A stretch of 57,109 nucleotides of DNA from contig MHEU01000067.1 in NCBI GenBank assembly GCA_001805245.1, positions 1 through 57,109 of the forward strand, read 5' to 3'. Within the stretch, counting starts at the first letter, position 1. Each line of letters starts with the position of its first letter. The notes below the pieces were generated by a model. That model was given only the letters and a program-made list of their open reading frames with translations. It searched no databases and was not told the origin of the DNA. Positions 241 through 23,455 of the stretch are shown piece by piece. Made by a program: the position numbers and the translations under genes. Origin of the DNA: Nitrospirae bacterium RIFCSPLOWO2_02_FULL_62_14 (GTDB lineage Bacteria; Nitrospirota; Nitrospiria; Nitrospirales; Nitrospiraceae).

Positions 241-380
241 TCGGTTTGTCTGGTTTGTTTGGTTTTTCTCGTTTGTTTGGTTTGTCAGGCGAACCCAACG
301 GACCAAACCGGCTAAACAGGCATAACAGACCGAACAGACGAAAAGAGGGTTCTTCTGGTTTATCTGGTTTGCCCGGTTGG
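241..380 (+). repeat. family-A dyad repeat, copy A1
   Basis: G/T arm of 9-nt words (gtctggttt gtttggttt ...). Centre is tttgtcaggcgaac. A/C arm is gaccaaacc ggctaaaca ggcataaca gaccgaaca. Confidence 0.85.
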
Positions 381-400
381 CCCGCGCAAGCGAGGTATGA

Positions 401-700
401 TCAACCGCTCGCGGTCTTTACTTCGAGGTGAAGCTCTTTGGGAGGGGTACGGGGTTCCCGTGGAGGGGGTCCGCCCCAGATGAGCACGTCGGGGCACAGA
501 TCGGCACCGTTCGGCCAGACCACCGACCCTTCCTCCGCCCGTGCTTCGCGAAAGCGGGCGGGGTCCCGACGAATTGGTTCAAAGATGGGACCGATCAGCA
601 GATCGGCGATGTCCCGCTCAACCACAGACCCGTCCGTCAAAGTCAGACGCAGCCGGAACCCTTCGAGCGGAACCACCTGTTTGATACGCAGCAGTGACAT
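401..700 (-). CDS. DUF2442-like small protein
   Basis: MSLLRIKQVVPLEGFRLRLTLTDGSVVERDI... fits the small protein usually paired with DUF4160. The internal ATG at 700 is preferred over the long ORF start. Confidence 0.65.
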   Translation of the reverse strand: MSLLRIKQVVPLEGFRLRLTLTDGSVVERDIADLLIGPIFEPIRRDPARFREARAEEGSVVWPNGADLCPDVLIWGGPPPREPRTPPKELHLEVKTASG

Positions 701-713
701 CGATGGACTCACT

Positions 714-974
714 TTACTCCAATGGGGCGATCGGTTGCAAAGATTCTCCCTTACGTGCCAGGCTCCAGTCCTGTTGTAATTCGCCACGATGTAGTGCGGC
801 CCACTCGAGGACGAGCCCGCGCGCGCGTTGAGGTAGATCGCCCTGATAAATTTTCAGGGTTTCGATGTTGATCAACGCCTCAAACTCCCCATAGGCCGCG
901 TGAAAATGCGGGGGATAGTGATCGTTCACATACATCCGAATCACGATTCCGAAGAACCGACTGATTTCCGGCAT
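714..974 (-). CDS. DUF4160-like small protein
   Basis: MPEISRFFGIVIRMYVNDHYPPHFHAAYGEFEA carries the PPHFH motif typical of DUF4160. ATG verified at 974. 13-nt gap to the DUF2442-like gene. Confidence 0.7.
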   Translation of the reverse strand: MPEISRFFGIVIRMYVNDHYPPHFHAAYGEFEALINIETLKIYQGDLPQRARGLVLEWAALHRGELQQDWSLARKGESLQPIAPLE

Positions 975-1025
975 GGGCCGGAGTCTAGTGGAATGTGATT
1001 CGGAATGCAAAGCAGATGAGTGGCG

Positions 1026-1136
1026 GGCGCGGGACGCGCGGGAGGGTTCATCTGGTTTCTCTGGTTTGTTTGGTTTGTCTGGTTTGTTTTGTTGGACGGA
1101 ACAGACTAGACAGACGGAACGGACAGAACAGTCGGA
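1026..1136 (+). repeat. family-A dyad repeat, copy A2
   Basis: 1051-1086 reads tctggtttc tctggtttg tttggtttg tctggtttg, followed by gaacagact agacagacg gaacggaca gaacagtcg. Prefix gcgggacgcgcgggaggg is shared with A8. Confidence 0.85.
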
Positions 1137-1190
1137 GAAAGAAAAAGGTGTCAGGAACCATTCAGAATCGTGGGAACGGTTCCTGACACC
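1131..1190 (-). terminator. hairpin (13-bp stem ggtgtcaggaacc/ggttcctgacacc) followed by a T-run on the minus strand
   Basis: Stem read directly. The minus strand continues tttttctttc. Lies downstream of the 1337..1741 gene. A related hairpin sits at 4021..4064. Confidence 0.55.
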
Positions 1191-1261
1191 CTCATACACT
1201 GACGTGCTGACATGACGACGTTCGGACGTTCCGACGCCGGGCACGTCGAGGACTATTTCAC

Positions 1262-1345
1262 CCGCCTTTGCTAAAGCTTCCAGCCTTCGTAGCCGAGCTA
1301 CTTCGGCGGAGTAGGCTCCGGCGGGTTTCGGCGAAGCTACCTCAT
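1262..1345 (-). repeat. family-H (GAAGC/GCTTC word) element directly after a stop codon
   Basis: Contains tcggcggagtaggctc, identical to a 16-mer in the element at 20590..20781. Abuts the stop codon at 1337. Confidence 0.6.
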
Positions 1346-1741
1346 GACGTGGCCGACCGCGTACAGGAGGATCCCCGCGAGAAAGAGGACCTGTTGGGGC
1401 CAGCAGACCGCCTTCAGCGGGAGCGAGTGCTCGCGCCCCCCCAGCACAAACGTCCGGAACTGTCCTTTTACATCGTAGATCGATTCTGTCGTGCCGGTCA
1501 GTGTCTCCGCCACCAGGGGGAGGAGCCCCATCGTAAACAGCCCGAAGACCGTCGACAGTCCCATGCACAGCACAACCGCATTTTTCAGGCTTTCGTGCAC
1601 CGCGTCGGGATGTTCCACCACCCACCCGAGCGCGACCACGCTGATCACGATCAGGTAGTTATTTGAGTTATTGAAATATTCCACCGCCTTGAGCAAGTGA
1701 TCGATGTGTTCCTTGTGCGTCTTGTGCTCGTGGTTGCTCAT
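1337..1741 (-). CDS. hypothetical membrane protein
   Basis: 134-aa ORF with several hydrophobic segments (YLIVISVVALGWVV, VVLCMGLSTVFGLFTMGLLPLV, VLFLAGILLYAV). No family recognised. Confidence 0.5.
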   Translation of the reverse strand: MSNHEHKTHKEHIDHLLKAVEYFNNSNNYLIVISVVALGWVVEHPDAVHESLKNAVVLCMGLSTVFGLFTMGLLPLVAETLTGTTESIYDVKGQFRTFVLGGREHSLPLKAVCWPQQVLFLAGILLYAVGHVMR

Positions 1742-1839
1742 GCCGGACCCCCTTTGGTGAAGGTGGTAAAGAGCTGTCCCGAACTTCCGCCGCGCAGTCT
1801 AGCGACTTTCCACAATAAAAGCGAATGCCGGCAGCCAGG

Positions 1840-2028
1840 AATGTCTATCTGGTCTATTCGGTCTATCTGGTCTGTCTGGTTTTTTGGTTTATCTGGTTGG
1901 TCGGGTTTGTTTGGTCTATCTGGTCGGATCAACAGAGCAACGGACCCAACGGACTAAACCGACCAAACAGGCGGAACGGGCTAAACAGGCATAACAGACC
2001 GAACAGACAAGACAGACTAGAAAGACCC
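1840..2028 (+). repeat. family-A dyad repeat, long copy A3
   Basis: Starts aatgtctatctgg and has centre ggtcggatcaacagagcaacgg. Near-identical over long stretches to A5. Confidence 0.9.
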
Positions 2029-2140
2029 GTCGGATCGAGGGACGACAGTCACTGTCCTGCTTACTTTGCCAGAAAAATCACCCCGCCGCCCACTCCGACG
2101 TGCATGGTCTATTGCATATGCACATATTGGCGCGACTGGC

Positions 2141-2247
2141 GGGATGGTTTGTTTGGTTGGTTTGGGACGGACCGAACTGGCCTAACAGGCCCAACTGGCT
2201 TAACGGGCTGAACAGACAAGACAGACTGGATAGACAAGGCAGACCGT
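2141..2247 (+). repeat. family-A dyad repeat, copy A4
   Basis: ggtttgtttggttggtttggg ... cctaacaggcccaactggcttaacgggctgaacagacaagacagac. Confidence 0.8.
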
Positions 2248-2261
2248 TTAATCGTGGGTGG

Positions 2262-2816
2262 TTACCCGTTCTCGTCGGCAGCGAACAGGGCTTTATATTC
2301 CTCCGCCACGCCCAACTCTTCGGCCTTGGCCGCCAGGTCTTTGAGTTCGGACTGGTTGGGCCGGCGCACGGCGACGATGTTCCGGGCATCTTGCAGATCG
2401 ACCGGTCCTCCCGCATAGAGCTTCAAAAGCACCAGCGCGGGCCAATCCACCACCGGAAGCCGGCGTTCCAGCACCGGGATCTTCTTGATCTGTCCGAACA
2501 CCAGATCGGCCCATCGGGATTGCAGGAGAATCAGTTGGACGGGCACCGTGCGCTTGCCGACGGACAGTTTCAGCCGAAACACACCGCACAGCGGATCATC
2601 CGGATCGCCCGGCTGAAAACCGGCCTTGAGATGCGCGGCAAGACGGGCCGGGTCAGCCGTGCCGAGCGCCACCGCCAGATCGATGTCCTGCGTGGCGCGT
2701 GCCACCCCCCAGGCCGAGACGGCAAACCCTCCGACCAGGGCGTAGGACTGCACCAGTTTTTTCTTGCGCGCCTCGTCGAGGCGCCGGACGATGTCGATTA
2801 ACGCTTGCCGGAACAC
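2262..2816 (-). CDS. minimal nucleotidyltransferase-fold protein (toxin-antitoxin-type NTase)
   Basis: GGFAVSAWGVARATQDIDLAV fits the G[GS]-x(9-13)-DxD NTase signature. 184-aa ORF. Confidence 0.6.
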   Translation of the reverse strand: MFRQALIDIVRRLDEARKKKLVQSYALVGGFAVSAWGVARATQDIDLAVALGTADPARLAAHLKAGFQPGDPDDPLCGVFRLKLSVGKRTVPVQLILLQSRWADLVFGQIKKIPVLERRLPVVDWPALVLLKLYAGGPVDLQDARNIVAVRRPNQSELKDLAAKAEELGVAEEYKALFAADENG

Positions 2817-2983
2817 GCGAGCTTGAGTTCGAGGCAGGTGTCGGACAGCTCGAGGGACAGCCGTAGCCGCTGCTCCGGCGTCATCCGCCGAGCCTCCTCA
2901 ATCTTTCGGCTGGTGAGCCGCCCGCTCAACCGGCTGGGCCGCCGACGGAGCGCGCGGGCTTGAGCTGTCGTATGACGATTCAT
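2798..2983 (-). CDS. small Arg-rich partner protein overlapping the NTase gene start
   Basis: ATG verified at 2983. 61 aa (MNRHTTAQARALRRRPSRLSGRL...). 19-nt overlap with the downstream NTase gene. Confidence 0.4.
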   Translation of the reverse strand: MNRHTTAQARALRRRPSRLSGRLTSRKIEEARRMTPEQRLRLSLELSDTCLELKLACSGKR

Positions 2984-3072
2984 GGGCGCATTATACACAG
3001 ATTCAGGCAAAGAAAAAGGTGTCGAGTCTCTTTCCCCTGCTCGAACCCGCAGGGCGGAGGGGCAGCCCGAAA

Positions 3073-3253
3073 AATGTCTATCTGGTTGATCTGGTTCGTC
3101 TGGTTTGTCTAGTTTTTTTGATTTATCTGGTTGGTCGAGTTTGTTTGGTCTATCTGGTCGGATCAACAGAGCAACGGACCCAACGGACGTAACGGACCAA
3201 ACCGGCTAAACAGGCATAATAGACCGAACAGACAAGACAGACTAGAAAGACCC
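3073..3253 (+). repeat. family-A dyad repeat, long copy A5
   Basis: Same start word, centre and end (gacaagacagactagaaagaccc) as A3. Confidence 0.9.
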
Positions 3254-3300
3254 GCAGATCGACGAGCCAGAGACTGGGAGCAGTTATCGAGAGCGACGTG

Positions 3301-3630
3301 TCAACGGACCGCGTGGGCTGTCTCGAGGGCGGCCAGGTACCGGTTCAACCGCTGGATCTCCTCGCTCTGCATGTGCAGGAAGGTGACGCTGAAGTCCCAC
3401 TCCATGGTCCAGCGGACGGCAGCCAACCGGACCTCCACCGGCGCAGGGGAACCCGGGAGATAGAGGCGGAGGGACAGGTAGGTTCCCAGATCCACTCGTG
3501 TGTTGCTGGTCACCTTGCAGCCTTCAATCGAGAGGTTGTACACGACCCCGCGGGCTTCTCCCGAATACCCGTCTCGCGCGAAGGCCACCGGGAGGTGTGC
3601 TCGAAAGCGCTTGGAATCCAGCTGCTCCAT
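3301..3630 (-). CDS. PilZ-domain protein 1
   Basis: KRFRAHLPVAF... GVVYNLSIEGCKV fits the RxxxR ... (D/N)xSxxG pattern of PilZ. Confidence 0.7.
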   Translation of the reverse strand: MEQLDSKRFRAHLPVAFARDGYSGEARGVVYNLSIEGCKVTSNTRVDLGTYLSLRLYLPGSPAPVEVRLAAVRWTMEWDFSVTFLHMQSEEIQRLNRYLAALETAHAVR

Positions 3631-3657
3631 GTGGATCCTGGTGCCCCGCGGGCTACC

Positions 3658-3990
3658 TCAGGCGGCTTCGGTGCCCTGGGTGTTTTGCTGCAGCCCGTCG
3701 ATCAGTTGGCCGAGGCGCACTTCGTCGCGGGTTCCGAGGCTGAGGAACTCCACGCCGAAGTCCTCCCCTGCCGTCCAGGTGACCTCGGCCTGGTCCACCG
3801 CGATCGGCTGGGGGAGATGCGGCAGGTTCAGACGCAGGGTCAGCACCGTCCCTCGCGCTACCGGCGTCCCGCTTTCAATGGCGCCACCGCTCATTGACAG
3901 GTTGAAGAGCCTCCCTTCGCCAACCCCCTGGTTCCCCAGGAACACAACGGGGTACTGTACGAACAGCCGCCGCTCTCTCTGCACTTCCAT
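3658..3990 (-). CDS. PilZ-domain protein 2
   Basis: MEVQRERRLFVQYPV... GRLFNLSMSGGAIES. ATG verified at 3990. Paralog of protein 3. Confidence 0.7.
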   Translation of the reverse strand: MEVQRERRLFVQYPVVFLGNQGVGEGRLFNLSMSGGAIESGTPVARGTVLTLRLNLPHLPQPIAVDQAEVTWTAGEDFGVEFLSLGTRDEVRLGQLIDGLQQNTQGTEAA

Positions 3991-4020
3991 CGGTACATCC
4001 TCCTGGCTGTGAAACTCAGG

Positions 4021-4064
4021 TGCCGGGAACCATTTCAGAACCGTGGGAACGGTTCCCGATACCC
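4021..4064. repeat. GGAACC-word hairpin related to 1147..1190
   Basis: gggaaccatttcagaaccgtgggaacggttccc compared with ggaaccattcagaatcgtgggaacggttcc. Confidence 0.6.
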
Positions 4065-4076
4065 TGGATTGCGAAA

Positions 4077-4424
4077 TTAGCTTGGTCTGGCCTGGTGTGA
4101 TCGACGCTGCTGGATGCTTTGCAGCAGGGTCTCGATCAGCCGGTTCAGGCGTTCCCGTTCCTGTGGACCCAACTGGAGAAATTGCACCCCAAAATCGTCC
4201 CCGCACGTCCAAGTGACCTCGGCCTTGTCCACTTCAATCGGCTGATCCTGGGACGGAATATGTACACGCAGGGTCAGGATCGTTCCACTTTGTACAGGGA
4301 CCTGGCTCTCAACGGCCCCGCCGCAGGTCGAAAGATTGAAGAGCGTTCCCCTGCTAACCCCTTGATTTCCTTCGATAGAAACAGGGCACTGTACGAATAA
4401 CCGTCTTTCGCGTCGTACTTCCAT
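4077..4424 (-). CDS. PilZ-domain protein 3
   Basis: MEVRRERRLFVQCPV... GTLFNLSTCGGAVES. Confidence 0.7.
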   Translation of the reverse strand: MEVRRERRLFVQCPVSIEGNQGVSRGTLFNLSTCGGAVESQVPVQSGTILTLRVHIPSQDQPIEVDKAEVTWTCGDDFGVQFLQLGPQERERLNRLIETLLQSIQQRRSHQARPS

Positions 4425-4578
4425 TCCCCCTCACCTCCAAGCTGATAGACACCCAAAATAAGAGAGCTATTTCAGCTATGAGCAAGGGCAATGCCAAACT
4501 GTGAATAGATTGTGGGCAGGCTGAGGTTTGAACCTACCGACTAGCGCTGAGAGGCTGAGGAGCGCGGAACGATGAAAG

Positions 4579-4641
4579 AAATGTCTATCTAGTCTGTCTG
4601 GTCTATCTGGTTAGATCTTGAGACAGGACAGACTGAATAGA
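4579..4641 (+). repeat. family-A short copy A6 (composite with B1)
   Basis: aatgtctatctagtctgtctggtctatctgg ... acaggacagactgaatagac. Confidence 0.75.
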
Positions 4642-4676
4642 CGTGATGACTTGACGACTTTTCGACTTTACGACGC
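4642..4676. repeat. family-B half element B1
   Basis: gtgatgacttgacgacttttcgactttacgacg, i.e. GACTT words only. Confidence 0.7.
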
Positions 4677-4685
4677 GTGGCGCCG

Positions 4686-5375
4686 TTATTTCACTTTTGA
4701 GAAGTCCGCGTTGAACTCGATCTGCTTGCCGTCCATGAAAAAGACGACGACCTTGGTCTTGGCGTTGGGGTCGAAGCTGTCGTAGGCGAACCGGGCGGTG
4801 AAGCGGGTGCGGTAGGCCGAGGCCTTGTCCGGCAATTCGATCTTGCGGCCGCGCTCGGCGGGGCTGACGTCCACCGGCTTGATGGTCTTGGAACCCTGCT
4901 GGAAGGCCACCTGCACGCCCTCGGCGAAATATTCATCGTCGCCGCAGAGCTGCACTTCGACTTCCAGGTTGGGCATGCCGAGGTACTTCTGGATCTTGTC
5001 GTCCGGCATGCGGACGTCGGTCTTCTGCTTCCTGGACTCCGTGGCCTCCTTGCGGCCGAAGGATTCCAGCCAGTACCGCTTGGTGCGGAGAATGGCGCTG
5101 GTGCCGCAGGGCTCTTTTTCGGGATCGGCGCCGACCCGCGTGATCATGGAGGCGTGCTGCAGGACTTTCTTGATCTCTTCGTCCGGCTTGGCGGCGTCCG
5201 AGGCCTTCATCATCGGATCGCGTCCGGCGGCGAGGGATTTCTTGGCTTCGTCCATCGTGAGCTTCACGTCAATGGCCCCTGCCGGGTCGGCGGCGCAGGC
5301 CACGGCCGCCACGACAGCGAACATTCCCAACCGGACCCGCAGGGCAGGCTGACTCATCACATGCCGCGCGCTCAT
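4686..5375 (-). CDS. secreted hypothetical protein
   Basis: Start MSARHV at 5375 with a GGGGGA RBS. Signal-like LGMFAVVAAVACAADPAGA. No family recognised. Confidence 0.55.
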   Translation of the reverse strand: MSARHVMSQPALRVRLGMFAVVAAVACAADPAGAIDVKLTMDEAKKSLAAGRDPMMKASDAAKPDEEIKKVLQHASMITRVGADPEKEPCGTSAILRTKRYWLESFGRKEATESRKQKTDVRMPDDKIQKYLGMPNLEVEVQLCGDDEYFAEGVQVAFQQGSKTIKPVDVSPAERGRKIELPDKASAYRTRFTARFAYDSFDPNAKTKVVVFFMDGKQIEFNADFSKVK

Positions 5376-5447
5376 AGAATCCCCCTTAGAAAGGCAGACA
5401 ATAATGGGCGGCATTGTAAGGAAACAGCAGGGGCAAAGCAATGATTT

Positions 5448-5584
5448 GGGGAAGGCGATGGGCTAGAGGCACGCGGCGAGAGGTCAGATGAAGCGGGCCA
5501 TTGAGATGAAATGCTTTGACGTGGTTCTAAGACGCTTCGGAGCCTTTGGAGCCCCTCGCCTCTTGCCACTCGCCCCTAGCCTAC
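5448..5584. repeat. family-F heptamer dyad, copy F1
   Basis: Left arm is ggcgatg ggctaga ggcacgc ggcgaga. Right arm is cctcgcc tcttgcc actcgcc cctagcc. The right arm overlaps the maf stop codon. Confidence 0.75.
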
Positions 5585-6216
5585 ACGTGGAAGGCGGACC
5601 AGTTCGGATAGGGTTTCGTGCGGTAGAGGTGCTCCACGTCCACCGGGACGGAGAGGCCGTGCTTCTTGAGCAGCGAGGCGGTCAGGCGCAGCGGGAGGCC
5701 GACGGCGGCGGTATAATCACCCTCGATCCGCTCGATGAAGTCGCCGCCGCGGCCCTGGATAGAATAGGCGCCGGCCTTGCCCTCCCACTCGCCGCTCTCC
5801 AGGTACGCATTGAGGTCGGCGTCGCTGAACGGCTTCATCCAGACCTGCACGGTCTCCACGGCCACGTCCTGGAGCTTGCGCGCGGGGTCGTAGAGCGCCA
5901 CGGCGGTGTAGATGCGATGGTCGCGTCCCCGAAGCCGCCGCAACATGGCGTCGGCCTGCGCGCGATCGGCCGCCTTCCCGAGGATGAGTTCCCCCACGGC
6001 AATCAGCGTATCGCTGCCCAGCACCAGGCCGTCGTCATACGGCTGCGCGCAGGATTGCGCCTTGCCCAGCGCAAAGGTCCACGCCTGCGCCTCCGGCGGC
6101 ACCTCGGCATGGATCCATTCGTGAAACTTCGGATCAACGACCTCGAAGGGAACTTGCAGCAGGGCCAGCAGCTCTTTGCGGCGCGGAGAGGTGGATGCGA
6201 GGACGAGGGACTTCAC
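5581..6216 (-). CDS. maf: Maf-like nucleoside triphosphate pyrophosphatase
   Basis: LVLASTSPRRKELL ... GKAGAYSIQG. GTG start at 6216 overlaps the dus stop (GTGA). Confidence 0.85.
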   Translation of the reverse strand: MKSLVLASTSPRRKELLALLQVPFEVVDPKFHEWIHAEVPPEAQAWTFALGKAQSCAQPYDDGLVLGSDTLIAVGELILGKAADRAQADAMLRRLRGRDHRIYTAVALYDPARKLQDVAVETVQVWMKPFSDADLNAYLESGEWEGKAGAYSIQGRGGDFIERIEGDYTAAVGLPLRLTASLLKKHGLSVPVDVEHLYRTKPYPNWSAFHV

Positions 6217-7454
6217 GCAGTTTCGAGCGCGGGCGTGGTGCGGTGCGCGGAATCTGTCTGATGCCGGGCCTGCTGCCCGGCCTGATATTCGGAGACCAGG
6301 CGCGCGACGTCCTCGCTGCTGGAAGCCCGCACCATGGCGGCACGCATGGCGGCGGCGCTGGGGAAGCCCTTGCAGTACCAGCCCAGGTGCTTGCGCATGC
6401 GGGGGAAGCACTGCCGGTCCAACAGCGCCTCGTACTGCCGGGCATGGTCCAGCATCACGCGGAACCGTTCCTCGCGCGACGGCGATTCACGCTCGACCGC
6501 GCGCGCGGGATCGCCGACGGCGGCCCGGGCCGCTTCCTTGTGACGGAACAGCCACGGCTCGCCCAACGCCCCGCGGCCCACCAGCACGCCGTGCACGCCG
6601 TGCTCACGGACCCGGCGAACGACATCTTCAAGGCTTTGCACGTCGCCGTTGCCGAGCAGGAGCGTGCCGGTTTTTCGGGCGAGCTGCGCGGCGCGTTCGA
6701 TGGCCGACCAGTCGGCCGCGCCCCGGTACATCTGCTCCAGCGTCCGGCCATGCACGGAAATGACGACCGGCTGCTCGGCCAGGAGATGCTCGATCCAGCG
6801 TTCGACGATGATCGTGTCGTAGCCGATACGCGTTTTGACCGAGAGCGGGATCGCCCGGCGCGCAACCGGCGGGTCTGTCTGAACGGGGCGCCGCCGGTTC
6901 ATGGCCTGGATCAATTCAACGCGCGATTCCTTCAAGCCCGCGCCCGTGAGCGACTGGCCCGCCGCCCAATCGGCGATGCCCTCCCGCGTCGCCCGCATGA
7001 TCTCGTGCGCCAGGTCGGGCGTGCGAATGAGCCCGGCGCCGGAGCCGGACGAGGCCACGTTGCGCGAGGGGCAGCCCATGTTGATGTCCAACCCGTCGAA
7101 GCCCAGTTCGCAGACGACGTGCGCCGCCTGGTAGAAGATGTCCGGGTCCCTGCCGTAGAGCTGGGCCACGACCGGCCGTTCCACTTCGCTATAGATCAGC
7201 GACGAGAGGAGATGGGCGGGGCCGCGGCAGACGTCCATCACGCTGGTGAATTCGGTGAAGATGACGTCCGGCCGTCCCTGCACGGCCACCGTGAGGCGGA
7301 ACGGCGCATCGGTGACGCCGTCCATGGGCGCCAGGCCGATGATCGGGCGAGGAAGTGTATGCCAGAAAAACGCGTGATCAGTAATGAGTGATGCGTGCTC
7401 CGGTACCGGATTCTCGCCCTCCCCACAACTCATCACTCGTAACTCATCACTCAT
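6213..7454 (-). CDS. dus: tRNA-dihydrouridine synthase
   Basis: GLAPMDGVTDAPFR and DGLDINMGCP motifs. Start uncertain (7454 or 7433). The N-terminal codons lie inside repeat E. Confidence 0.85.
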   Translation of the reverse strand: MSDELRVMSCGEGENPVPEHASLITDHAFFWHTLPRPIIGLAPMDGVTDAPFRLTVAVQGRPDVIFTEFTSVMDVCRGPAHLLSSLIYSEVERPVVAQLYGRDPDIFYQAAHVVCELGFDGLDINMGCPSRNVASSGSGAGLIRTPDLAHEIMRATREGIADWAAGQSLTGAGLKESRVELIQAMNRRRPVQTDPPVARRAIPLSVKTRIGYDTIIVERWIEHLLAEQPVVISVHGRTLEQMYRGAADWSAIERAAQLARKTGTLLLGNGDVQSLEDVVRRVREHGVHGVLVGRGALGEPWLFRHKEAARAAVGDPARAVERESPSREERFRVMLDHARQYEALLDRQCFPRMRKHLGWYCKGFPSAAAMRAAMVRASSSEDVARLVSEYQAGQQARHQTDSAHRTTPALETA

Positions 7455-7466
7455 AACGCGTTACGC
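7373..7466. repeat. family-E heptamer dyad (CTCATCA words)
   Basis: Left arm is cagtaat gagtgat g. Right arm is ctcatca ctcgtaa ctcatca ctcataa cgcgtta. Spans the DUF692-gene stop and the dus start. Confidence 0.7.
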
Positions 7467-8927
7467 TCCCACCTGTTCACAGGCTGCCTGGTAGCCTTCC
7501 CGCAAAGCCTGCGCTTCCCGCACGGCCGTGCCGGATGCGGCCGGCAGCACTTCGCGGACGAACTCGACGAAGCGGGTGATCTTGAGCAGGAAAAAATCGT
7601 AGGCCTGATCGTTTGCGCGCGGCTCGCGGAACCAGAACCGGACGAACGCATCCAGTGCGATACCGGCACGATCCAAGTCCCGGCAGGTCTCCGGGAACAT
7701 CTCGTGCACCGCGCCGCCCCATTCCAGAATCTCGTGCGGCAGGTAATGCTCGACATAGAGCGGCAGCGCCGAGGCATCCCCGCCGAGAACCGGCAACCCG
7801 GATGCCGCCCGTCCCGTGACGATCTGCGCGTAGCGGTCGTATTGCTCCACTAGCCTGCCGTCGGCAGGCGTGGAGCACGCGCGACGAGCGGGACGCGCGC
7901 GACTTGCGCGAATCGAGTCTCGCCTTTCGCGCCTTTCCCGCCAGTCTCGCGCGACACGGTTACCAAACCGTTCGCAGGCTTGTGCAAATTCCTCCACGAT
8001 CGTCGGAATCGGCTTGGTGTCCACTTCCAGCGCCACGCCCTTGAGATTGACGAGCCCTCGATGCTCGAGCACCTGCGCCAGCATGTCGGAAAGCACGTCC
8101 GGGATCGGCGCGCCGTGCGCGTCGATCCAGAGCGGCGGCTCTCCGTCCGGGCGCGCGCGGGACGGCACGGCCTGATGCAGCGCCAGCCCGGCCATGTGGA
8201 TCTCGACGACGCGCTCCAATGGAAAGGCTTCCAGGAACCCGGCCAGGAATGCCGCGAGCGGACGCCGGCGCCACTCGCCCGTGTAGCGATAGACGGTCCA
8301 GAGATGGCCGATGTCCAAGACGACGCCGCAGGGCGTGCGGTCGGTCACGAGGCGGAAAAACTCCGCCATCGTCAGGTCGCCGAAGCCCACGTAGGTGAGC
8401 GGCGGCGTTTCGAGCAGGAACAGCGGGCCCATCCCATCATGGCCATTGCGGCCGGCGCGCGCGCGGAAAGCCCGGTCCAACCGCTGCTGCGCCTGCGCGA
8501 TGTTCGCCGCCGTCACGTCGGCGCTCGCAGCGGTGAACAATGCCGGCAGATAGGTGCCGAACGCATGGCCGGCCATCTGCTTGGCGGCGCATTCATGGTT
8601 CAGCCAATGACTGTCGAGGATGCCGAGCTGTTCGGCGGCCTCGTCGAGCCCGGCGTGAAACGGCGAGAGCGTTTCGGGATCCGGCTGCGTCACCCAGAGC
8701 CCTTCGGCGTGATACGAGAGCAGGACGCCGGGCAGTCGCCGGCGCAGTACTTCCAGCGCGGAGGGCGCAGCTTTGAAAATTTCGAGATAGCCGTAGTCCA
8801 ATCCGCGACGGTTTAATGCCCCGACCAGCTCGAACAGGTCGGGCTGGTAGACGTCCACGGACAGGCCGAGCCCGTGGTGCGGGATGCGGGCGACGCGATC
8901 AAGAAACTCTCGTTCAATGGGTGTCAT
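7461..8927 (-). CDS. DUF692-family (multinuclear non-heme iron oxidase, MbnB-like) protein fused to a ~135-aa C-terminal domain
   Basis: N-terminal ~325 aa (HHGLGLSVDV ... EIHMAG ... WIDAHG ... LEVD) resembles the DUF692 TIM-barrel family. The C-terminal part may be DUF2063-like, which is unverified. Confidence 0.7.
   Translation of the reverse strand: MTPIEREFLDRVARIPHHGLGLSVDVYQPDLFELVGALNRRGLDYGYLEIFKAAPSALEVLRRRLPGVLLSYHAEGLWVTQPDPETLSPFHAGLDEAAEQLGILDSHWLNHECAAKQMAGHAFGTYLPALFTAASADVTAANIAQAQQRLDRAFRARAGRNGHDGMGPLFLLETPPLTYVGFGDLTMAEFFRLVTDRTPCGVVLDIGHLWTVYRYTGEWRRRPLAAFLAGFLEAFPLERVVEIHMAGLALHQAVPSRARPDGEPPLWIDAHGAPIPDVLSDMLAQVLEHRGLVNLKGVALEVDTKPIPTIVEEFAQACERFGNRVARDWRERRERRDSIRASRARPARRACSTPADGRLVEQYDRYAQIVTGRAASGLPVLGGDASALPLYVEHYLPHEILEWGGAVHEMFPETCRDLDRAGIALDAFVRFWFREPRANDQAYDFFLLKITRFVEFVREVLPAASGTAVREAQALREGYQAACEQVGA
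7866..7950. repeat. family-D element D1, located inside the DUF692 ORF
   Basis: gacttgcgcgaatcgagtctcgcctttcgcgcctttcccgccagtctcgc closely parallels the intergenic copy D3. Confidence 0.75.
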
Positions 8928-8930
8928 GCT

Positions 8931-9068
8931 TGTTCGGTCCGTTTAGCCTGTTTTGTCTGTCTCGTCTGGTCAGTCTGTTAAGCCTGTTTAGCCGGTTTGG
9001 TCCGTTACGTCCGTTGTTCCGTTGATCCAACCAGACAAACCAGATAAACCAAACAAACCAGACAAACC
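8931..9068 (-). repeat. family-A dyad repeat, copy A7 (inverted orientation)
   Basis: gtccgtttagcctgttttgtctg ... ccagacaaaccagataaaccaaacaaaccagacaaacc. Confidence 0.85.
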
Positions 9069-9070
9069 TT

Positions 9071-9120
9071 CTTCCCCGTCGCGCTTTTCACGCCTTTCTC
9101 GCACGTCTCGCATACGCGAC
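9071..9120. repeat. family-D half element D2
   Basis: cgtcgcgcttttcacgcctttctcgcacgtctcgc resembles the right half of D3. Confidence 0.55.
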
Positions 9121-9202
9121 GTTAGTGTACCGACCAGCCCCATGATTAACAAGCCGGCGCGTTCGTTTTGACCGCCCCCCCTCAATGGGGTAAGCTTCTC
9201 GC

Positions 9203-10264
9203 ATGAGCCCACCGGTTCCGTTTTCGAAAAGCACGCGCGGCCGCCCGGCGCTGACCAACGAACAGATCCTCGAGCAGGTCCAGACGCTCCTCGACATGCC
9301 CGCAGGCGACCTGCAGCAGACCCTGATCCGGGAAATGCTGCTGACCGTGCTGCGTCTGAGGGAGGCGCCCTTCGACACCCTCGATCTGAAAATCCTCAAC
9401 CGCACGCTGCGCGAGCTGCGGTACGCGTTCAAGGTGTTCGGCCAGTACCGCGACCGCCGGAAGGTCAGCATCTTCGGCTCGGCGCGCACGCAGCCCGGCG
9501 AGCCGGACTACCGGCTGGCGGCGCAATTCGGCAGGCGGATCGTCGAGGCCAGCTACATGGTCATCACCGGCGCGGCCGACGGCATCATGGGCGCGGCGCA
9601 GGAAGGCGCGGGGCGCGAGCAGAGCTTCGGCGTCAACATCATGCTGCCGTTCGAGCAGGGCGCCAACGCGACGATTGCGGACGATCCGAAGCTGGTCACC
9701 TTCAAATATTTCTTCACGCGCAAGCTGATGTTCCTGAAAGAGTCCCAGGCCGTGGCGCTGTTCCCCGGCGGGTTCGGCACCCACGACGAGGGCTTCGAAG
9801 TGCTGACGCTCGTGCAGACCGGCAAGGCGCCGCCGCAGCCGATCGTCTGCCTGCATGCGCCGGGCAGCGACTACTGGCACGAGTGGAACCGGTTCGTGAC
9901 CGGCCAGCTGCTGGCGCGCAAGCTGATCAACGAGGACGACACGGGGCTCTACCGCATCGTGGATTCCGCCGAGGCGGCGGTGGACGAGATCACCGCGTTC
10001 TATCGCGTCTACCATTCGCTCCGGTTCGTGGACCGGCGCATGATCCTCCGGCTCAAGCAGCGCCTGTCGGGCGACCACCTGGACACGCTGAACCGGGAGT
10101 TCGCCGACCTGCTCGAGACCGGCGCCTTCGAGCAACGGGCGGCCCTGCCCGAGGAAGCGGACGAGCCCGACCTGCAGGACCTCCCGCGCCTGGCGTTTCA
10201 CTATCACCGCCGCAGTGCCGGCCGCATCCGGCAGCTCATCAACCGGATCAACGGATTCGGCTAG
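9203..10264 (+). CDS. LOG/TIGR00730-family nucleotide 5'-monophosphate nucleosidase (PpnN-like long form)
   Basis: VITGAADGIMGAA and PGGFGTHDE motifs. Confidence 0.8.
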   Translation: MSPPVPFSKSTRGRPALTNEQILEQVQTLLDMPAGDLQQTLIREMLLTVLRLREAPFDTLDLKILNRTLRELRYAFKVFGQYRDRRKVSIFGSARTQPGEPDYRLAAQFGRRIVEASYMVITGAADGIMGAAQEGAGREQSFGVNIMLPFEQGANATIADDPKLVTFKYFFTRKLMFLKESQAVALFPGGFGTHDEGFEVLTLVQTGKAPPQPIVCLHAPGSDYWHEWNRFVTGQLLARKLINEDDTGLYRIVDSAEAAVDEITAFYRVYHSLRFVDRRMILRLKQRLSGDHLDTLNREFADLLETGAFEQRAALPEEADEPDLQDLPRLAFHYHRRSAGRIRQLINRINGFG

Positions 10265-10269
10265 GGCAG

Positions 10270-10372
10270 CGAGACGCGCGGGAGGGTTTGTCTGGTTTTT
10301 CTGGTTGATCTGGTTTGTCTGGTTTGTCAGGCGATGAAACGGATCAAACTGCTCAACCGGCCGAACGCGGGG
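10270..10372 (+). repeat. family-A dyad repeat, copy A8
   Basis: gggtttgtctggtttttctggttgatctggtttgtctggtttgtcaggcgatgaaacggatcaaac. Confidence 0.85.
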
Positions 10373-10445
10373 GAACACAACGGGGACGTTCACAATATGC
10401 GGAGCGTTCACTACTGGAGTGGCCCGTTCAACGTGGCGAAGCGTT

Positions 10446-10487
10446 AAAGGCGACGGGCTTGGAAGCGGCCCGTCGCCTTTCTCTTTT
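10446..10487 (+). terminator. intrinsic terminator after the LOG gene
   Basis: 13-bp stem aaaggcgacgggc/gcccgtcgccttt with a 9-nt loop, then ctctttta. Confidence 0.65.
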
Positions 10488-10510
10488 ATAAGCTTATGAG
10501 AGGCTATTCC

Positions 10511-10618
10511 CTGCGAGTGCGGCATGGTTTCCGACGACTGCGCGCATGGGACGAGCACCCTTCTGAGGCGTGCGCGTTCTGCGAGCAAGGGAGGAAACCA
10601 TGCCGCCAGCTCGCTCTT
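10511..10618. other. long-stem structured element (14+5 bp closing stem, ~60-nt interior)
   Basis: gcgag-t-gcggcatggtttcc ... ggaaaccatgccgc-cag-ctcgc, read directly. Confidence 0.4.
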
Positions 10619-10640
10619 TCCTTCACGCATTGCACGGGAA

Positions 10641-10766
10641 GGTTGTCTCGTTTGCCTCGTTTGTCTGGTTTGTCAGGCGATGAAACAGAACGAACCGGCC
10701 AACGGGCTGAACGCTCCTAACGGACAAAGCAGACCGCACAGACGGGACAGACCAGATAGACATTCC
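10641..10766 (+). repeat. family-A dyad repeat, copy A9
   Basis: ggttgtctcgtttgcctcgtttgtctggtttgtcaggcgatgaaac ... gacagaccagatagacatt. Confidence 0.85.
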
Positions 10767-10821
10767 GCCGGTCTCGCGCACGCCGCGTCCCCATCATTTA
10801 CCCTGTCCGTCGCGGCGTGCT

Positions 10822-11773: not shown

Positions 11774-11779
11774 ATCGAT

Positions 11780-12505: not shown

Positions 12506-12511
12506 GCAAAC

Positions 12512-12947: not shown

Positions 12948-12959
12948 ATAAAGGGGATG

Positions 12960-13232
12960 TCGCGCTTGAAGCGACTTTGCCGAAGAAGCGGGGCACCCAC
13001 CGAGGCTTCAGCGAGTAGGAAAGCTGGAACTGACTGAGGCACCGCGATCGCAGATCGCGGCTGAAGGAATTCCAGAAGGTTTCCGCGAGCTGAAGCCCGG
13101 AAGGGTCGCTTCGAGAGGCGCGGAAGCGGAGAGCGCGACTTCCCCGTTTAGCCCTTCGCCAGCCGTCATTCCGAGAGGTGCGGAAGCGAGCGGCAGTACC
13201 ACCCCGCTCCCACCTTTTGTCAGTCCAGAGGA
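12960..13232 (-). repeat. family-H long element, right copy (sense to purE) with an internal duplication
   Basis: The reverse complement aligns with 12512..12690. The segment ...cgcttccgcacctctcg... occurs twice. Confidence 0.8.
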
Positions 13233-19876: not shown

Positions 19877-19996
19877 CAGTCGAAAGTCGGAAAGTCTATC
19901 TGGGTTCTTGTCTATCAAGTCGGAAAGTCCGTCAAGTCATAAAGTCCATATGGCCTGAAGACGTTACGACTTTAAGGACTTGATGACTTTTTGACG
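19877..19996. repeat. family-B dyad repeat, copy B2 (contains family-A words)
   Basis: agtcgaaagtcggaaagtc tatctgggttcttgtctatc aagtcggaaagtcc ... gactttaaggacttgatgacttttt. Confidence 0.8.
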
Positions 19997-20781: not shown

Positions 20782-21576
20782 TCACGTCCCCGCTCCCTGC
20801 CGCGCGGAGCGCTGCAACGTGGCGAATAATTCCTCCTGCTCGCGCTCCGCCAGATTCTTCCACTGCCCGACGGCCAGGCCCTCGATCGTGATGTTCATGA
20901 TCCGGATGCGGTGGAGCGCCGTCACGCGATAGCCCAGCGTTTCGCACATGCGCCGGATCTGCCGGTTCCGGCCTTCCGTGAGGATGATGCGGAACTCCCG
21001 CGGGCCGCGCCGGCTGACCGTGCAGGGCTTCGTCTTTTTGTCCAGAATGACCACTCCGCCGGCCATGCGATCCAGAAAGCTCTGGTCGAACGGCCGGTCC
21101 ACCTGCACGAGGTATTCCTTCTCGTGACCGTGCTCGGCGCGCAGAACCTGGTTGACGATTTCGCCGTCGTTCGTTAGCAGGATCAACCCGGAGGAATCCT
21201 TGTCGAGGCGGCCGATGGGGAAAATCCTCTGCGCGTGACCGATGAAGGCGATGATGTTGTCCGGCACATCCAGCTCGCAGGTGGTCGTGACACCGAGCGG
21301 CTTGTGAAACTTGATATAGACCGGCCGGTTGCCCCACGGGATGACTGTGCCGTCGCGGGCCACGGTGTCGCCGGGCACCACCCGGTCGCCCAGCTTGGCG
21401 ACGCGGCCGTTGATCGTGATGCGCCCCGACTCGATCCATTGGTCGGCTTCGCGCCGCGACCCGATGCCCTGCTGGGTAAAAAATTTGTTGATCCGACACG
21501 CGTCAGGCGAAACACGGGCCGCAGGTTTGTCCTGCGACGCCGGACGGGTCTTCTTGATGAGTTTTGGCGACACCAT
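20782..21576 (-). CDS. rluF: RluF/RsuA-family 23S rRNA pseudouridine synthase
   Basis: S4 domain (RINKFFTQQGIGSRREAD), catalytic GRLDKDSSGLILLTNDG, and HEKEY. Confidence 0.8.
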   Translation of the reverse strand: MVSPKLIKKTRPASQDKPAARVSPDACRINKFFTQQGIGSRREADQWIESGRITINGRVAKLGDRVVPGDTVARDGTVIPWGNRPVYIKFHKPLGVTTTCELDVPDNIIAFIGHAQRIFPIGRLDKDSSGLILLTNDGEIVNQVLRAEHGHEKEYLVQVDRPFDQSFLDRMAGGVVILDKKTKPCTVSRRGPREFRIILTEGRNRQIRRMCETLGYRVTALHRIRIMNITIEGLAVGQWKNLAEREQEELFATLQRSARQGAGT

Positions 21577-21589
21577 GATTGGAGGAGCG

Positions 21590-21672
21590 TGAACGCGCGT
21601 CGGCGCGATTCGCGGGACGGGCGTGACTTGCGCGACTCGCTTTTCGCGCCACTCGCGCCAGTCTCGCCGGAC
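21590..21672. repeat. family-D element D3 (intergenic)
   Basis: gacttgcgcgactcgcttttcgcgccactcgcgccagtctcgcc. Confidence 0.7.
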
Positions 21673-21684
21673 ATCAGCCGGCGT

Positions 21685-22638
21685 TCATCGTTTTTTCTTG
21701 CGCCGGCGGTGGCGCTGCCCTGCGCGGATGCGGCCGAGCATCCGGTAAATCAGCCGCGCGACGGTGAATTGCGGCGCCGCAAAGCCCTCGATGGGCGCAA
21801 TCTCGCTGATGTCCATGCCGATGATGCCGGGCCCGTTCGCCAGCGCGGTGACGAGCGCCAGCGTATCGTACCAGCCGAGACCACCCGGCTCCGGCGTCCC
21901 CAATGCCGGCACTAACGACGCATCGAGCCCGTCGCAATCGAACGTCAGATAGACCGGACGCCCCTTGCAGGCTTTCACGACGGCCGGCACCCATTTGGCC
22001 GCCTGCCCCTTGTAGGGCCCGCCGGGATCGCAAATCTGCGCGGCGAAAAAGGTGCTGATGGTCTTGGTATTGCGGATCGTGCTGATTTCCTCCGGCGAAA
22101 TGGACCGGATGCCGACCTGCACGAGCGGCAGGCCGTCCTGCACGACGCGGGCCATCACGCTCGCGTGGCTGTAGGGATTGTCCTGGTACGCCTTGCGCAG
22201 GTCGCCGTGCGCGTCGATCTGCACCACGCACAGATCCGGCCACTGTTTCGCGTGGGCGCGGATCGCGCCGAGGGCGCCGGTGTGCTCGCCGGTGAGCGTG
22301 ACGACGAGACGGCCCGGCTTCACGTGCGGACGGACGAACGCCTCGATGGCATCCACCGCCGCCTTGTCCACTCTGCCCTTGAGATCGAGCGGCTCGGCGG
22401 TCGCCACGCCGCCCCAGTCCCGATAGATTTCCGAGTCGAGCGTTTCGTCATAGAGTTCGACCTGCTGGGAGGCTTCGATGATCGCGGACGGACCCTTGTC
22501 GGATCCGAGAATGTAGCTGGAGGTGTGCTCGTAGGGCGCGGGCATCACGTAGACGCCCGCCTGCGCGGGGTTGCACCAGGGCTCGCCGATGCCGAGAAAA
22601 TTCCGATCCTGGCCGAGCCAGCCGGCCGGCACCGCCAT
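21685..22638 (-). CDS. speB: agmatinase (ureohydrolase family)
   Basis: VQIDAHGDLR, LTFDCDGLD and GMDISEIAP motifs. Lies downstream of pdaD. Confidence 0.8.
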   Translation of the reverse strand: MAVPAGWLGQDRNFLGIGEPWCNPAQAGVYVMPAPYEHTSSYILGSDKGPSAIIEASQQVELYDETLDSEIYRDWGGVATAEPLDLKGRVDKAAVDAIEAFVRPHVKPGRLVVTLTGEHTGALGAIRAHAKQWPDLCVVQIDAHGDLRKAYQDNPYSHASVMARVVQDGLPLVQVGIRSISPEEISTIRNTKTISTFFAAQICDPGGPYKGQAAKWVPAVVKACKGRPVYLTFDCDGLDASLVPALGTPEPGGLGWYDTLALVTALANGPGIIGMDISEIAPIEGFAAPQFTVARLIYRMLGRIRAGQRHRRRKKKR

Positions 22639-22782
22639 CCCGTACCTCTTGTTTACACTGATGAGCAGATTCGTTCCGGAATCCGATCCTGTAAAACGAA
22701 TCCGGTCATGCGCGAATTTGGAAACCAGCGGGCAGTTTGAGTGTCCCCATCGGCCGAGCCGGTTCCATCGGGGCCCTCACCC

Positions 22783-23352
22783 TTACCTCTTGCGCGCGGG
22801 AGGAAGATTCTCCAACGGGATGAACACCGCCAGGGCCACGACCGTCGTCCAGCGGTTGGCCTTGCCGATCGCGGACTGGGTGATGTTGAGCGTGCGGACG
22901 ATCTTGCCGCCCATCTTGAACACCTGCTCGCGCTCTTTCCACGCGATGTTGGAATCGAATTCGATGCCCAGGGTGGTGGCCAGCATCTGCGCGGCCAGGT
23001 CTTCCGTGTATTCGCCCGACTCCTCGTCGGTTTCGCCGTAGGCGTGATGCTCGGAGAGATAGCCGTAGGTCCGCCGGTCCGTCGGAATCGCCAGGCCGAT
23101 GGACGCGGAGATCAGCCGGTTGCGTTCGTTGGTTTCAGACCGGGCCATGACGCAGTGGGTGATTTCACCCGGATTGAGCAATTTCTCGCCGCGGCTTCTC
23201 GGAACGATTTTGCAGTTGGGCGGATAAATGGAGGAGACGCTGACCAGGTTGCAGTAGGCGACGCCGGCACTGCGCAGCGCTTCCTCGAATGATGCCAGTT
23301 TCTCCCGGTGCACTCCCACGCCCCGGCTCAGGAACATGTGCGTTGGAACCAT
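22783..23352 (-). CDS. pdaD: pyruvoyl-dependent arginine decarboxylase
   Basis: MVPTHMFLSRGVGVH ... NLVSVSSIYPP, the self-cleavage region typical of PdaD. Confidence 0.85.
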   Translation of the reverse strand: MVPTHMFLSRGVGVHREKLASFEEALRSAGVAYCNLVSVSSIYPPNCKIVPRSRGEKLLNPGEITHCVMARSETNERNRLISASIGLAIPTDRRTYGYLSEHHAYGETDEESGEYTEDLAAQMLATTLGIEFDSNIAWKEREQVFKMGGKIVRTLNITQSAIGKANRWTTVVALAVFIPLENLPPARKR

Positions 23353-23377
23353 CGTGCCTCCGTGACTGGTTGCGCTA

Positions 23378-23455
23378 GTTCTTCTGGTTTATCTGGTTTT
23401 TGGGGTTCGTCTCGTTCGAAACCAACCAGACAAACCAGATGCACCAAACAAACCG
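23378..23455. repeat. family-A compact copy A10
   Basis: ttctggtttatctggtttttgg ... aaccagacaaaccagatgcaccaaacaaacc. Confidence 0.8.

Follow-up and report, generated by a model that had tools for sequence, protein, structure and literature searches.

The repetitive extragenic palindromic (REP) sequences, bacterial interspersed mosaic elements (BIMEs) and REPINs of Enterobacteria and Pseudomonas are mobilised by RAYT, a Y1 HUH transposase, and REP hairpins in transcripts can stabilise 3' ends or attenuate transcription. BOX elements fold stably and include an internal module (boxB) that is iterated in tandem. The uptake sequences of Neisseria, when they stand as inverted pairs in terminators, are an over-represented word inverted 3' of genes, with both arms conserved and no dependence on strand. 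The short tandemly repeated repetitive (STRR) elements of cyanobacteria reportedly lengthen a helix in RNase P RNA. Vioque (1997) reported STRRs inside the gene for RNase P RNA of heterocyst-forming cyanobacteria. The cyanobacterial STRRs and the heptamer arrays of Beggiatoaceae are essentially direct 7-nt repeats located mostly upstream of start codons, for which translational or regulatory roles have been proposed (PMC4679880; bioRxiv 10.1101/2022.06.06.494920), and a Beggiatoaceae genome holds 169 direct sets against one inverted set (PMC4679880). The present analysis deals with family A, a repeat family with ten copies (A1 to A10) in a 57,109-nt stretch of a Nitrospiraceae metagenome contig; this whole stretch is called the window. 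Each copy is a dyad of degenerate 9-nt words, in which a GT-rich arm is followed by an AC-rich arm. With a probability of roughly 0.55, family A is an interspersed palindrome family similar to REPs, BIMEs and miniature inverted-repeat transposable elements (MITEs), which spreads between spacers, grows by word slippage and gives gene-end hairpins in both directions.

All ten copies are intergenic, between likely genes, and Tandem Repeats Finder detects a period-9 array at each of them. The copies and the spans of these arrays are as follows.

A1: 241..384, plus strand; GT arm 243-286, centre tttgtcaggcga and AC arm 297-341; period-9 array 243-286. The tail (349-384) is a partial second GT arm, the first 22 nt of which (349-370) are identical to the start of A10 (23378-23399). 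Located 20 nt 3' of the stop of a DUF2442 gene (401-700, minus strand).

A2: 1025..1136, plus strand; head GACGCGCGGGAGGGTT (also in A8), GT arm 1050-1093, short loop and AC arm 1095-1136; period-9 array 1051-1136. Located between the start of a DUF4160 gene (~975) and the stop of the gene 1337-1741.

A3: 1840..2038, plus strand; long form of ~200 nt with head AATGTCTATCTGG, ten GT-type words, centre ggtcggatcaacagagcaacgg and ten AC-type words; period-9 array 1843-2026.

A4: 2141..2247, plus strand; the GT arm (2142-2165) is short, the AC arm long and made of AACNGGCY / ACAGACAAG words; period-9 array 2145-2244. Ends 15 nt from the stop of the gene 2262-2816 (minus strand).

A5: 3073..3262, plus strand; long form, paralogue of A3; period-9 array 3081-3251. 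Flanked by the start of a small gene (2798-2986) and the stop of a PilZ gene (3301-3630).

A6: 4579..4641, plus strand; short form with the outer words GTCTATCTG / CAGACTGAATAGAC only, beginning AATGTCTATCTAG; period-9 array 4583-4611. Adjoins a half-array (4648-4674) of the 8-nt words of a second family, family B.

A7: 8931..9068, minus strand; inverted orientation; period-9 array 8937-9068. Located in a divergent spacer, 4 nt from the start codon of an MbnB/TglH-family gene (7461-8927, minus strand).

A8: 10264..10372, plus strand; head GACGCGCGGGAGGGTT, five GT words, centre tttgtcaggcga and a weak AC arm; period-9 array 10285-10328. Begins at the stop codon of a LOG-family gene (9203-10264).

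A9: 10641..10766, plus strand; GT arm, centre tttgtcaggcga and an AC arm closing with CCAGATAGACATT; period-9 array 10643-10753. Located 55 nt upstream of a DHHA1-family gene.

A10: 23378..23455, no strand assigned; canonical, fully symmetric subtype (TTCTGGTTTATCTGGTTT ... AACCAGACAAACCAGATG); period-9 array 23424-23454. Located 26 nt upstream of the start of an arginine decarboxylase gene (23352, minus strand).

The words are concentrated in these elements. With at most one mismatch, GTCTGGTTT is matched 31 times in the window, against 8.1 expected and 18 in the largest shuffle, and 28 of the 31 matches are inside the ten elements; the remaining three are single, carry one mismatch and are at chance level. 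The 15-mer GTTTGTCTGGTTTGT with at most two mismatches gives 25 matches against 0.04 expected, all 25 inside elements. The 9-nt phase spans both arms and often the centre too, the copies being written in blocks of nine. Self-BLAST aligns A3 with A5 at 86.5% identity over 200 nt, and the 3' arm of A1 with that of A5 at 97.7% identity over 43 nt. The window copies are homologous beyond the word level; they show true paralogy and are dispersed copies, not independent word arrays. An initial annotation of the same DNA had described ten copies built from degenerate 9-nt words, and period-9 arrays are indeed found at each of its ten places. Its boundaries needed small corrections, since A3 and A5 reach ~10 nt further right (to 2038 and 3262) and the starts of A2 and A8, with their common head, move to about 1025 and 10264. 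In addition, A1 has the extra partial GT arm and A10 is a separate symmetric subtype. The two centre subtypes it had distinguished (tttgtcaggcga in A1, A8 and A9; ggtcggatcaacagagcaacgg in A3, A5 and A7) can be read in the sequence, as can the long-copy head aatgtctatctgg in A3, A5 and A6 and its reverse complement closing A9. Open reading frames (ORFs) crossing the elements run in differing frames with low-complexity translations, which bears out the view that this is not a conserved coding module.

Three word types are found: the outer word GTCTATCTG, the inner 5' word GTCTGGTTT and, in A1 to A9, the inner 3' word AAACAGACC. The complement of the latter is GGTCTGTTT, which differs from the 5' word, and the arms of these copies therefore pair over ~8 bp with one mismatch or bulge per word. 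In contrast, the arms of A10 and of the A1 tail are exact word complements (TCTGGTTT / AAACCAGA), which ties the window copies to a large non-local family. A1 to A9 constitute a clade-specific derivative subfamily with the shifted 3' word.

The breadth of the family was examined with a 15-mer scan of reference genomes, one genome per species, and with a 22-base dyad pattern in metagenomes. Among the 120 reference loci listed, 16 are from Nitrospirota metagenome-assembled genomes (MAGs) and show the order of GT-rich arm, loop and AC-rich arm; most of the 120 matches are due to chance because the 15-mer is too short, and the enrichment of Nitrospirota is still informative. Most of the 16 loci contain complete A10-type dyads (e.g. 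GTTTGTCTGGTTTGTttggttgaac..ctaaccagataaacaaaacaaacc), and a few MAGs labelled WOR-3, Thermodesulfobacteriota and Deltaproteobacteria also carry dyads. The metagenome matches listed (at least 120) comprise at least 95 distinct cores at no fewer than 105 distinct sites, on contigs with a GC content of about 0.5-0.68. The elements there are 42-119 nt long, and those of the window reach 200 nt. The GT arm comes first in 16 of 16 dyads at loci found via one arm only, and two apparent exceptions elsewhere are artefacts; on either strand the 5' arm is GT-rich with the core TCTGGTT, and the 3' arm is its AC-rich complement.

The LOG-family protein beside A7 and A8 has relatives of 80-87% identity that are named Nitrospira or Nitrospiraceae. 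Contigs near-identical to the window are present in other ENA assemblies, so the elements are not an artefact of one assembly; no differences within elements were seen between the window and three near-identical strains (L121-L123), so that this comparison is uninformative. The family is not universal, as the syntenic 21 kb is free of it in Ca. Nitrospira bockiana, in strain Kam-Ns4a and in locus L126, and no match to the family was found among viral contigs, phage records and plasmid records. No description was found in the searchable literature on the sequence, on Nitrospira REPs and MITEs, or on inverted and intergenic repeats, and the RepRanger supplements are without Nitrospira sequences. 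Two findings had been named at the outset as fatal to the idea of a new family, namely an already described family and a local oddity or assembly artefact. Neither applies, since no Rfam match or published description was found and the elements occur in relatives and in many other assemblies. Family A is apparently a local, clade-specific branch of a large and undescribed Nitrospirota family of interspersed non-coding imperfect palindromes.

The elements lie preferentially just 3' of stop codons, in co-directional and convergent spacers. Genes at the metagenome loci were called with an iterated dicodon model, and the downstream start was that of the longest ORF. Among 56 classifiable sites, 39 are in tandem (co-directional), 12 in convergent and 5 in divergent spacers; the corresponding background is 322, 55 and 62. 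In tandem spacers the median distances are 30 nt from the upstream stop to the element and 66 nt from the element to the downstream start; 27 elements are nearer the stop and 11 nearer the start (p = 0.014), and 30 of the 39 are at most 45 nt from the stop. The family flanks the housekeeping genes TatD, PdxA and LOG, and elements are located near contig ends about twice as often as expected. The GC skew of the window is too weak for orienting replication.

Elements come and go in orthologous spacers of close relatives, and arrays gain or lose complete 9-nt units. Six relatives (L124, L125, L126, L128, L249 and L251) have kept the gene order around LOG, and their filled and empty spacers were compared at LOG protein identities of 80-96%. 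The MbnB-LOG spacer contains A7 in the window and related, differently built elements at the same spot in L128 and L249/L250; it is empty in L124, L125 and L126 and has a 7-nt-word dyad instead in L251. The LOG-DHHA1 spacer is 557 nt in the window versus 36-178 nt in the six relatives, all of which are missing a block of ~500 nt that consists of A8, a 270-nt repeat mosaic and A9. The LOG protein of L249 is 96% identical to that of the window, yet L249 is without this block. Between PilZ and a 229-aa gene, the window has A6, L128 has two larger elements, and L124 and L125 have none. At the metagenome loci (L129-L248), L157 and L177 are identical except for one 9-nt word, and the spacer upstream of TatD is filled, from the stop to the TatD start codon, in five loci with TatD proteins at least 81% identical.

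The strand with the GTCTGGTTT 5' arm folds better as RNA in eight of the ten window copies because G-U or G-T pairs are possible on one strand only, and the asymmetry is also seen with DNA parameters. In A2, the RNA minimum free energy (MFE) is -44.8 kcal/mol on the plus strand (z -6.1) versus -16.1 kcal/mol on the minus strand (z -2.0). The folding of one strand through T-opposite-G positions, which the initial annotation had pointed out, is true of the window copies; it is confined to the clade-specific subfamily, as canonical members fold alike on both strands (DNA-fold z -3.5 to -5.3 on either strand). At the 39 tandem sites, the sense strand is better in 18 and worse in 21 (p = 0.82), with mean RNA MFEs of -29.3 kcal/mol for sense and -29.5 kcal/mol for antisense. 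Arms of differing elements pair nearly as well as the arms of one element (-0.399 versus -0.433 kcal/mol per nt). By these calculations, either strand of a canonical copy can fold into a long, register-tolerant hairpin. In the case of A1 to A9, a master copy may have acquired the shifted 3' word, which would leave one mismatch per word and one strand that folds well. The one-strand folding of these copies looks like an inherited quirk rather than an adaptation at the RNA level.

Four orthologous pairs that align without gaps show changes at 14 of 372 stem positions and at 24 of 202 unpaired positions. Arm lengths within elements correlate at r = -0.2, a value confounded by the search pattern. 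Judged from these alignments, there is some constraint on the arms, and it seems to concern the words, or homogenisation between copies, as much as pairing.

The high-copy, non-coding, stop-proximal, mosaic and polymorphic behaviour of family A is the basis for reading it as extragenic palindromic repeats of the REP/BIME or MITE kind. Elements would be copied into new spacers by some trans-acting mobilisation or recombination route, and would then be altered where they stand, as strand slippage adds or removes words and copies exchange sequence with one another. They may be tolerated, and sometimes long retained, because a two-direction gene-end hairpin would be harmless or mildly useful. The possible uses include protection of 3' ends and insulation or termination between genes.

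Several observations weigh against this reading. The putative gene-end role is drawn from position, the preponderance of convergent over divergent spacers does not reach significance (p = 0.12), and the terminator scan of 1-12000 found no U-tract at the elements. A comparison by eye of the dicodon caller with the supplied gene calls of L128 found it mostly right with a few genes mis-stranded. The element ends are ragged, and the defined tip AATGTCTATCTGG is common only to some of the long copies. Filled and empty orthologous spacers have diverged too far for a target-site duplication to be read, and no empty site was found among the listed metagenome loci. Neither in the vicinity of any copy nor in about 1.4 Mb of related DNA was a transposase, RAYT or integrase found. 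RNAalifold, applied to 49 copies, gave zero consensus pairs and no consensus covarying structure; arm lengths differ by whole words, so a column-wise covariation test is not meaningful. In the four orthologous pairs, seven one-sided stem changes kept pairing and seven broke it, and no compensatory double changes were found in the stems. The lack of compensatory changes and of an RNAalifold consensus implies that the constraint may be on the words, e.g. as a protein site, and not on pairing.

The search for a mobilising enzyme covered the neighbours of the copies and the same 1.4 Mb. No RAYT was detected in a weak tblastn test, in which approximate YafM and IS200 TnpA queries gave nothing below E = 0.29 against the loci and the window. 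A unit of GT arm, cargo and AC arm with a transposase was not found in the related DNA, and only housekeeping families, with no recurrent transposase, recur among 604 predicted neighbour proteins. The candidate composite element L180 was rejected, as its contig 1650-3120 is a near-perfect fold-back in which one half is the reverse complement of the other and is almost certainly an assembly artefact.

The main rival, unlikely as it is, regards the elements as protein-loading arrays in which each 9-nt word (TCTGGTT / AACCAGA core) would be a putative binding unit for a nucleic-acid-binding protein, encoded by the host or by an element, and the hairpin would be secondary. The candidate proteins are a transposase that binds subterminal repeats, a protein of the nucleoid or partition type, a receptor for DNA uptake, and a single-strand binder such as a cold-shock-domain protein. 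Such binding agrees with the retention of the word in lineages that have 38-68% GC and in MAGs that bear the labels of other phyla, with the strict 9-nt phasing through whole elements, and with the invariable GT-first order (16/16). It would also account for two arms that are equally conserved and unmatched in length, for stems that change more slowly than loops without compensatory changes, and for the lack of a sense-strand bias. The recognition of words in single-stranded DNA has a precedent in CspB of B. subtilis, with a single-strand preference for GTCTTTG/T (PMC1904285). However, this exact heptamer is absent from 6.7 kb of arms, in which the commonest 7-mer is TCTGGTT, and CspB sites are thus rejected. 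No candidate protein is linked to the elements by the neighbour analysis. In other Nitrospira lineages the same architecture is built from quite different words of 7 and 8 nt, which argues against one specific binder. A DNA uptake sequence is also rejected, because the words, unlike uptake sequences, are virtually absent from genes (28 of the 31 GTCTGGTTT matches are inside elements).

An improbable further reading is a general "word-array hairpin" system of Nitrospira, in which many unrelated words of 7, 8 and 9 nt (GTCTGGTTT, GAAAGTC, CCGTGAT, TGCGTGA and others) are set in opposed gene-end arrays, with one and the same spacer holding different word families in different lineages. The 7-nt-word dyad at the A7 spot of the MbnB-LOG spacer indicates that the word-array dyad is a general architecture of which the word varies. 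Such a system could use an oligomerising family of nucleic-acid-binding proteins with one word per protomer, or alternatively a templated process by which words would be written in symmetry on the two arms. If it were true, the elements would be programmable loading platforms that set transcript ends or gene coupling, and not ordinary selfish repeats.

The readings as an in-situ by-product, a strand-specific RNA and attC sites fit the data worse. The first of these, which is given a lower probability again, would explain the elements without movement, by replication slippage and hairpin-templated copying in AT-poorer spacers. The 9-nt indel between otherwise identical orthologues, the remodelled interiors of orthologous elements (A7 versus L128 and L249), the unequal arm lengths, and the many unrelated word families with the same architecture in related genomes are what slippage would produce. 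In contrast, copies at unrelated loci share long specific sequence that includes non-word centres and heads. The centre GAACGAAAC recurs with its flanks at dozens of metagenome sites, and the same non-word centres are found at non-orthologous window sites (A3/A5; A1, A8 and A9). Moreover, relatives with 96% identical LOG proteins differ by the presence or absence of blocks that are hundreds of nt long.

It is very unlikely that family A is a structured cis-regulatory or small RNA with G-U pairs formed only in the transcript of one strand. The better folding of the GTCTGGTTT-arm strand in eight of ten window copies, A2 among them, would suit such an RNA; but the better strand is antisense to the flanking genes for A1 to A6 and sense for A7 to A10, without a consistent relation to transcription, and the tandem sites divide evenly as given above. 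Neither an RNAalifold consensus nor compensatory changes in orthologous pairs lend it support. At gathering scores only three tRNAs of the window match Rfam, and at E <= 1 the only other match is a chance one to a microRNA, of 22.6 bits versus a gathering score of 84; a known RNA family is thereby ruled out. Intrinsic terminators are likewise rejected, as the consensus scan of 1-12000 flagged no family A dyad as a whole. It gave 9 hits versus 9.9 expected; the only ones in family A are three weak ones on the minus strand (5-7 pairs), which fall on the right ends of A3 and A5. The only strong hit of the first 12 kb, at 10446-10480, lies between A8 and A9. The stems are rich in A/U and G-U pairs, and the 3' arm is AC-rich.

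Barely credible is the reading as attC sites of an integron-like cassette array without integrase (CALIN): A1 to A6 separate small co-oriented accessory genes, with toxin-antitoxin-like pairs included, and 1-4.7 kb has small minus-strand genes (DUF2442/DUF4160, AbiEii-like nucleotidyltransferase), variable content between relatives and elements that share one orientation and fold on one strand only, but no RYYYAAC ... GTTRRRY box pair, of the kind that brackets the 57-141 nt imperfect palindrome of an attC site, occurs on either strand of the window, no integrase is present among the neighbours examined, the elements reach 200 nt with 9-nt periodicity, the family also flanks TatD, PdxA and LOG, and the PilZ and 229-aa genes that lie between elements are syntenic and conserved, and not cassettes.

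Other repeat families abut the elements, as in BIME mosaics. Family B is a second dyad family with the same architecture as family A, composed of 8-nt words with the 5' arm GAAAGTCN and the 3' arm GACTTTNN. Its complete copies (19880-19995, 54432-54506, 55917-56003 and 56338-56416) start from a few to about 20 nt after a stop codon, and its half-array beside A6 is separated by about 12 nt from the stop of a gene on the minus strand (4686-5441). A DNA-fold z of -5.6 was obtained for the copy at 54425-54515. Dyads of 7-nt words and a CCTCTCG x9 array are found in L251 (6381-6458, 7975-8023, 16512-16599, 17129-17188, 224-287 and 9293-9358) and in L249 (2010-2100); the 7-nt words of related lineages include CCGTGAT/ATCACGG, AGACGTG and TGCGTGA/TNACGCA. 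A separate element of ~150 nt has terminal inverted repeats TAGCAGGATGCTGAAAAAGTCCGCCAGC ... GCTGGACGGCCTTTTTGAGCATCCTGC and a long internal hairpin, with 99 motif hits from 60 sources. It is found at loci in L129-L248 (e.g. L177 290-470, L187 50-230 and L200 4880-5060), and a degenerate copy is in the window at ~20011 (minus strand). This element is often immediately next to 9-nt-word dyads, which in some cases are flanked by one of its ends.

A near-perfect 45-nt hairpin (aggtgtcaggaacc...ggttcctgacacc) occurs at 1147-1190 and 4018-4065 with 87.5% identity, preceded by agaaaaagg; it was not found in the other loci compared. CCCGCAGGGCGGAGGG, at 219-233 and 3047-3061 just upstream of A1 and A5, may be a small mosaic module. 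The gap between A8 and A9 (10373-10640) is a mosaic, of which 10408-10489 recurs in the Rhomboid-PurE/PurK spacers of L124, L125, L128 and L251, and 10537-10589 recurs in four unrelated metagenome loci. The Rhomboid-PurE spacer of the window contains a large inverted repeat (12510-12689 / 12970-13166) with arms of about 180 nt that are 76-80% identical, and it is kept in the same four relatives. Further away, a 32-nt unit (GGGTCATCATGTTTTCAAAGCGGAGATCTGG) stands in 3.6 head-to-tail copies at 35798-35910 just beside tRNA-Glu (35669-35746), and two tRNA-Gln genes with TTG and CTG anticodons lie in a direct duplication of ~180 nt with 80% identity (41446-41623 and 41877-42049). The left end of the window (1-5441) is a variable region by comparison with L124, L125 and L128, since toxin-antitoxin-like pairs (DUF2442/DUF4160, AbiEii-like, PIN/MazE, PemK, ParE and HTH_3) that differ from relative to relative are inserted at differing points between conserved PilZ paralogues. 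Its GC content is 58.5% versus about 63%, and it holds six of the ten elements.

Among the nitrite oxidisers and complete ammonia oxidisers of soils, waters and treatment plants, Nitrospira are dominant, and to our knowledge their non-coding genome is almost unexplored. A family as dense as this one, with ten copies in the 57 kb of the window and more than 100 distinct metagenome sites, affects assembly and produces spurious ORFs such as 'CLVCLVCLV...NQINKTNQ'. Through their location at gene ends and in operon spacers, the elements may have an influence on the 3' ends of transcripts or on gene coupling. A word-based, register-tolerant hairpin that is built from other words in sister lineages is an unusual design for an extragenic palindrome, and it offers a tractable test of slippage versus mobilisation as the origin. 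The differences in 9-nt copy number between strains could serve as strain markers.

Compared with the described systems, family A resembles REP, BIME and REPIN sequences, since it also consists of high-copy, non-coding, extragenic imperfect palindromes located mainly after stops in convergent and co-directional spacers, forms mosaics with other short motifs, and shows presence/absence differences between relatives. The definition of a REP as an extragenic palindrome mostly 3' of genes is matched by its ten intergenic copies, its metagenome sites (at least 105) and their median distance from the stop, and the effects of REP hairpins on transcripts may extend to it. In contrast, a REP unit measures about 20-40 nt and has a tetranucleotide head that is conserved, whereas the elements of family A are 60-200 nt and made of phased 9-nt words. 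A GTAG-type head is absent from family A, the heads of which vary (AATGTCTATCTGG, GACGCGCGGGAGGGTT and AAGACCGTTRTTTGG), and there is no sequence similarity between the two. Family A is thus different from REP in its size, its lack of a conserved head and its phased words. The initial annotation saw no resemblance to REP/BIME and similar repeats, which is correct for sequence and size; the behaviour is nevertheless extragenic, stop-proximal, mosaic and presence/absence-polymorphic as in REP/BIME/MITE.

MITEs and modular repeats such as Correia/NEMIS of Neisseria and the pneumococcal RUP and BOX are similar to family A in being small, non-coding, based on inverted repeats, and polymorphic in spacers. 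Long copies of family A start with AATGTCTATCTGG, elements in L249 and L128 as well as A9 end with its complement, and the elements are non-coding, as is typical of MITEs; relatives differ in whether the MbnB-LOG and LOG-DHHA1 spacers are filled, in the manner of insertion polymorphism. Family A differs in that no target-site duplication is readable and no cognate insertion sequence with matching ends was found in about 1.4 Mb of related DNA, and in that the whole element rather than the tips is an inverted repeat with an iterated 9-nt unit mirrored on both arms. The STRR heptamers and the TAACTGA arrays of Beggiatoaceae resemble family A as short tandem words of variable copy number, intergenic near gene ends, in distant lineages. 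However, family A has a unit of 9 nt and not 7 nt, its arrays are always paired with an inverted array (16/16) and are therefore obligate dyads with the GT arm first, and they are mostly after stops. Uptake sequences are single words or pairs and common in genes, whereas family A has arrays of 4-10 words virtually confined to elements, and Nitrospira are not known to be competent. Taken together, family A is apparently an undescribed variant within the known class of extragenic palindromic repeats, and not a new kind of system.

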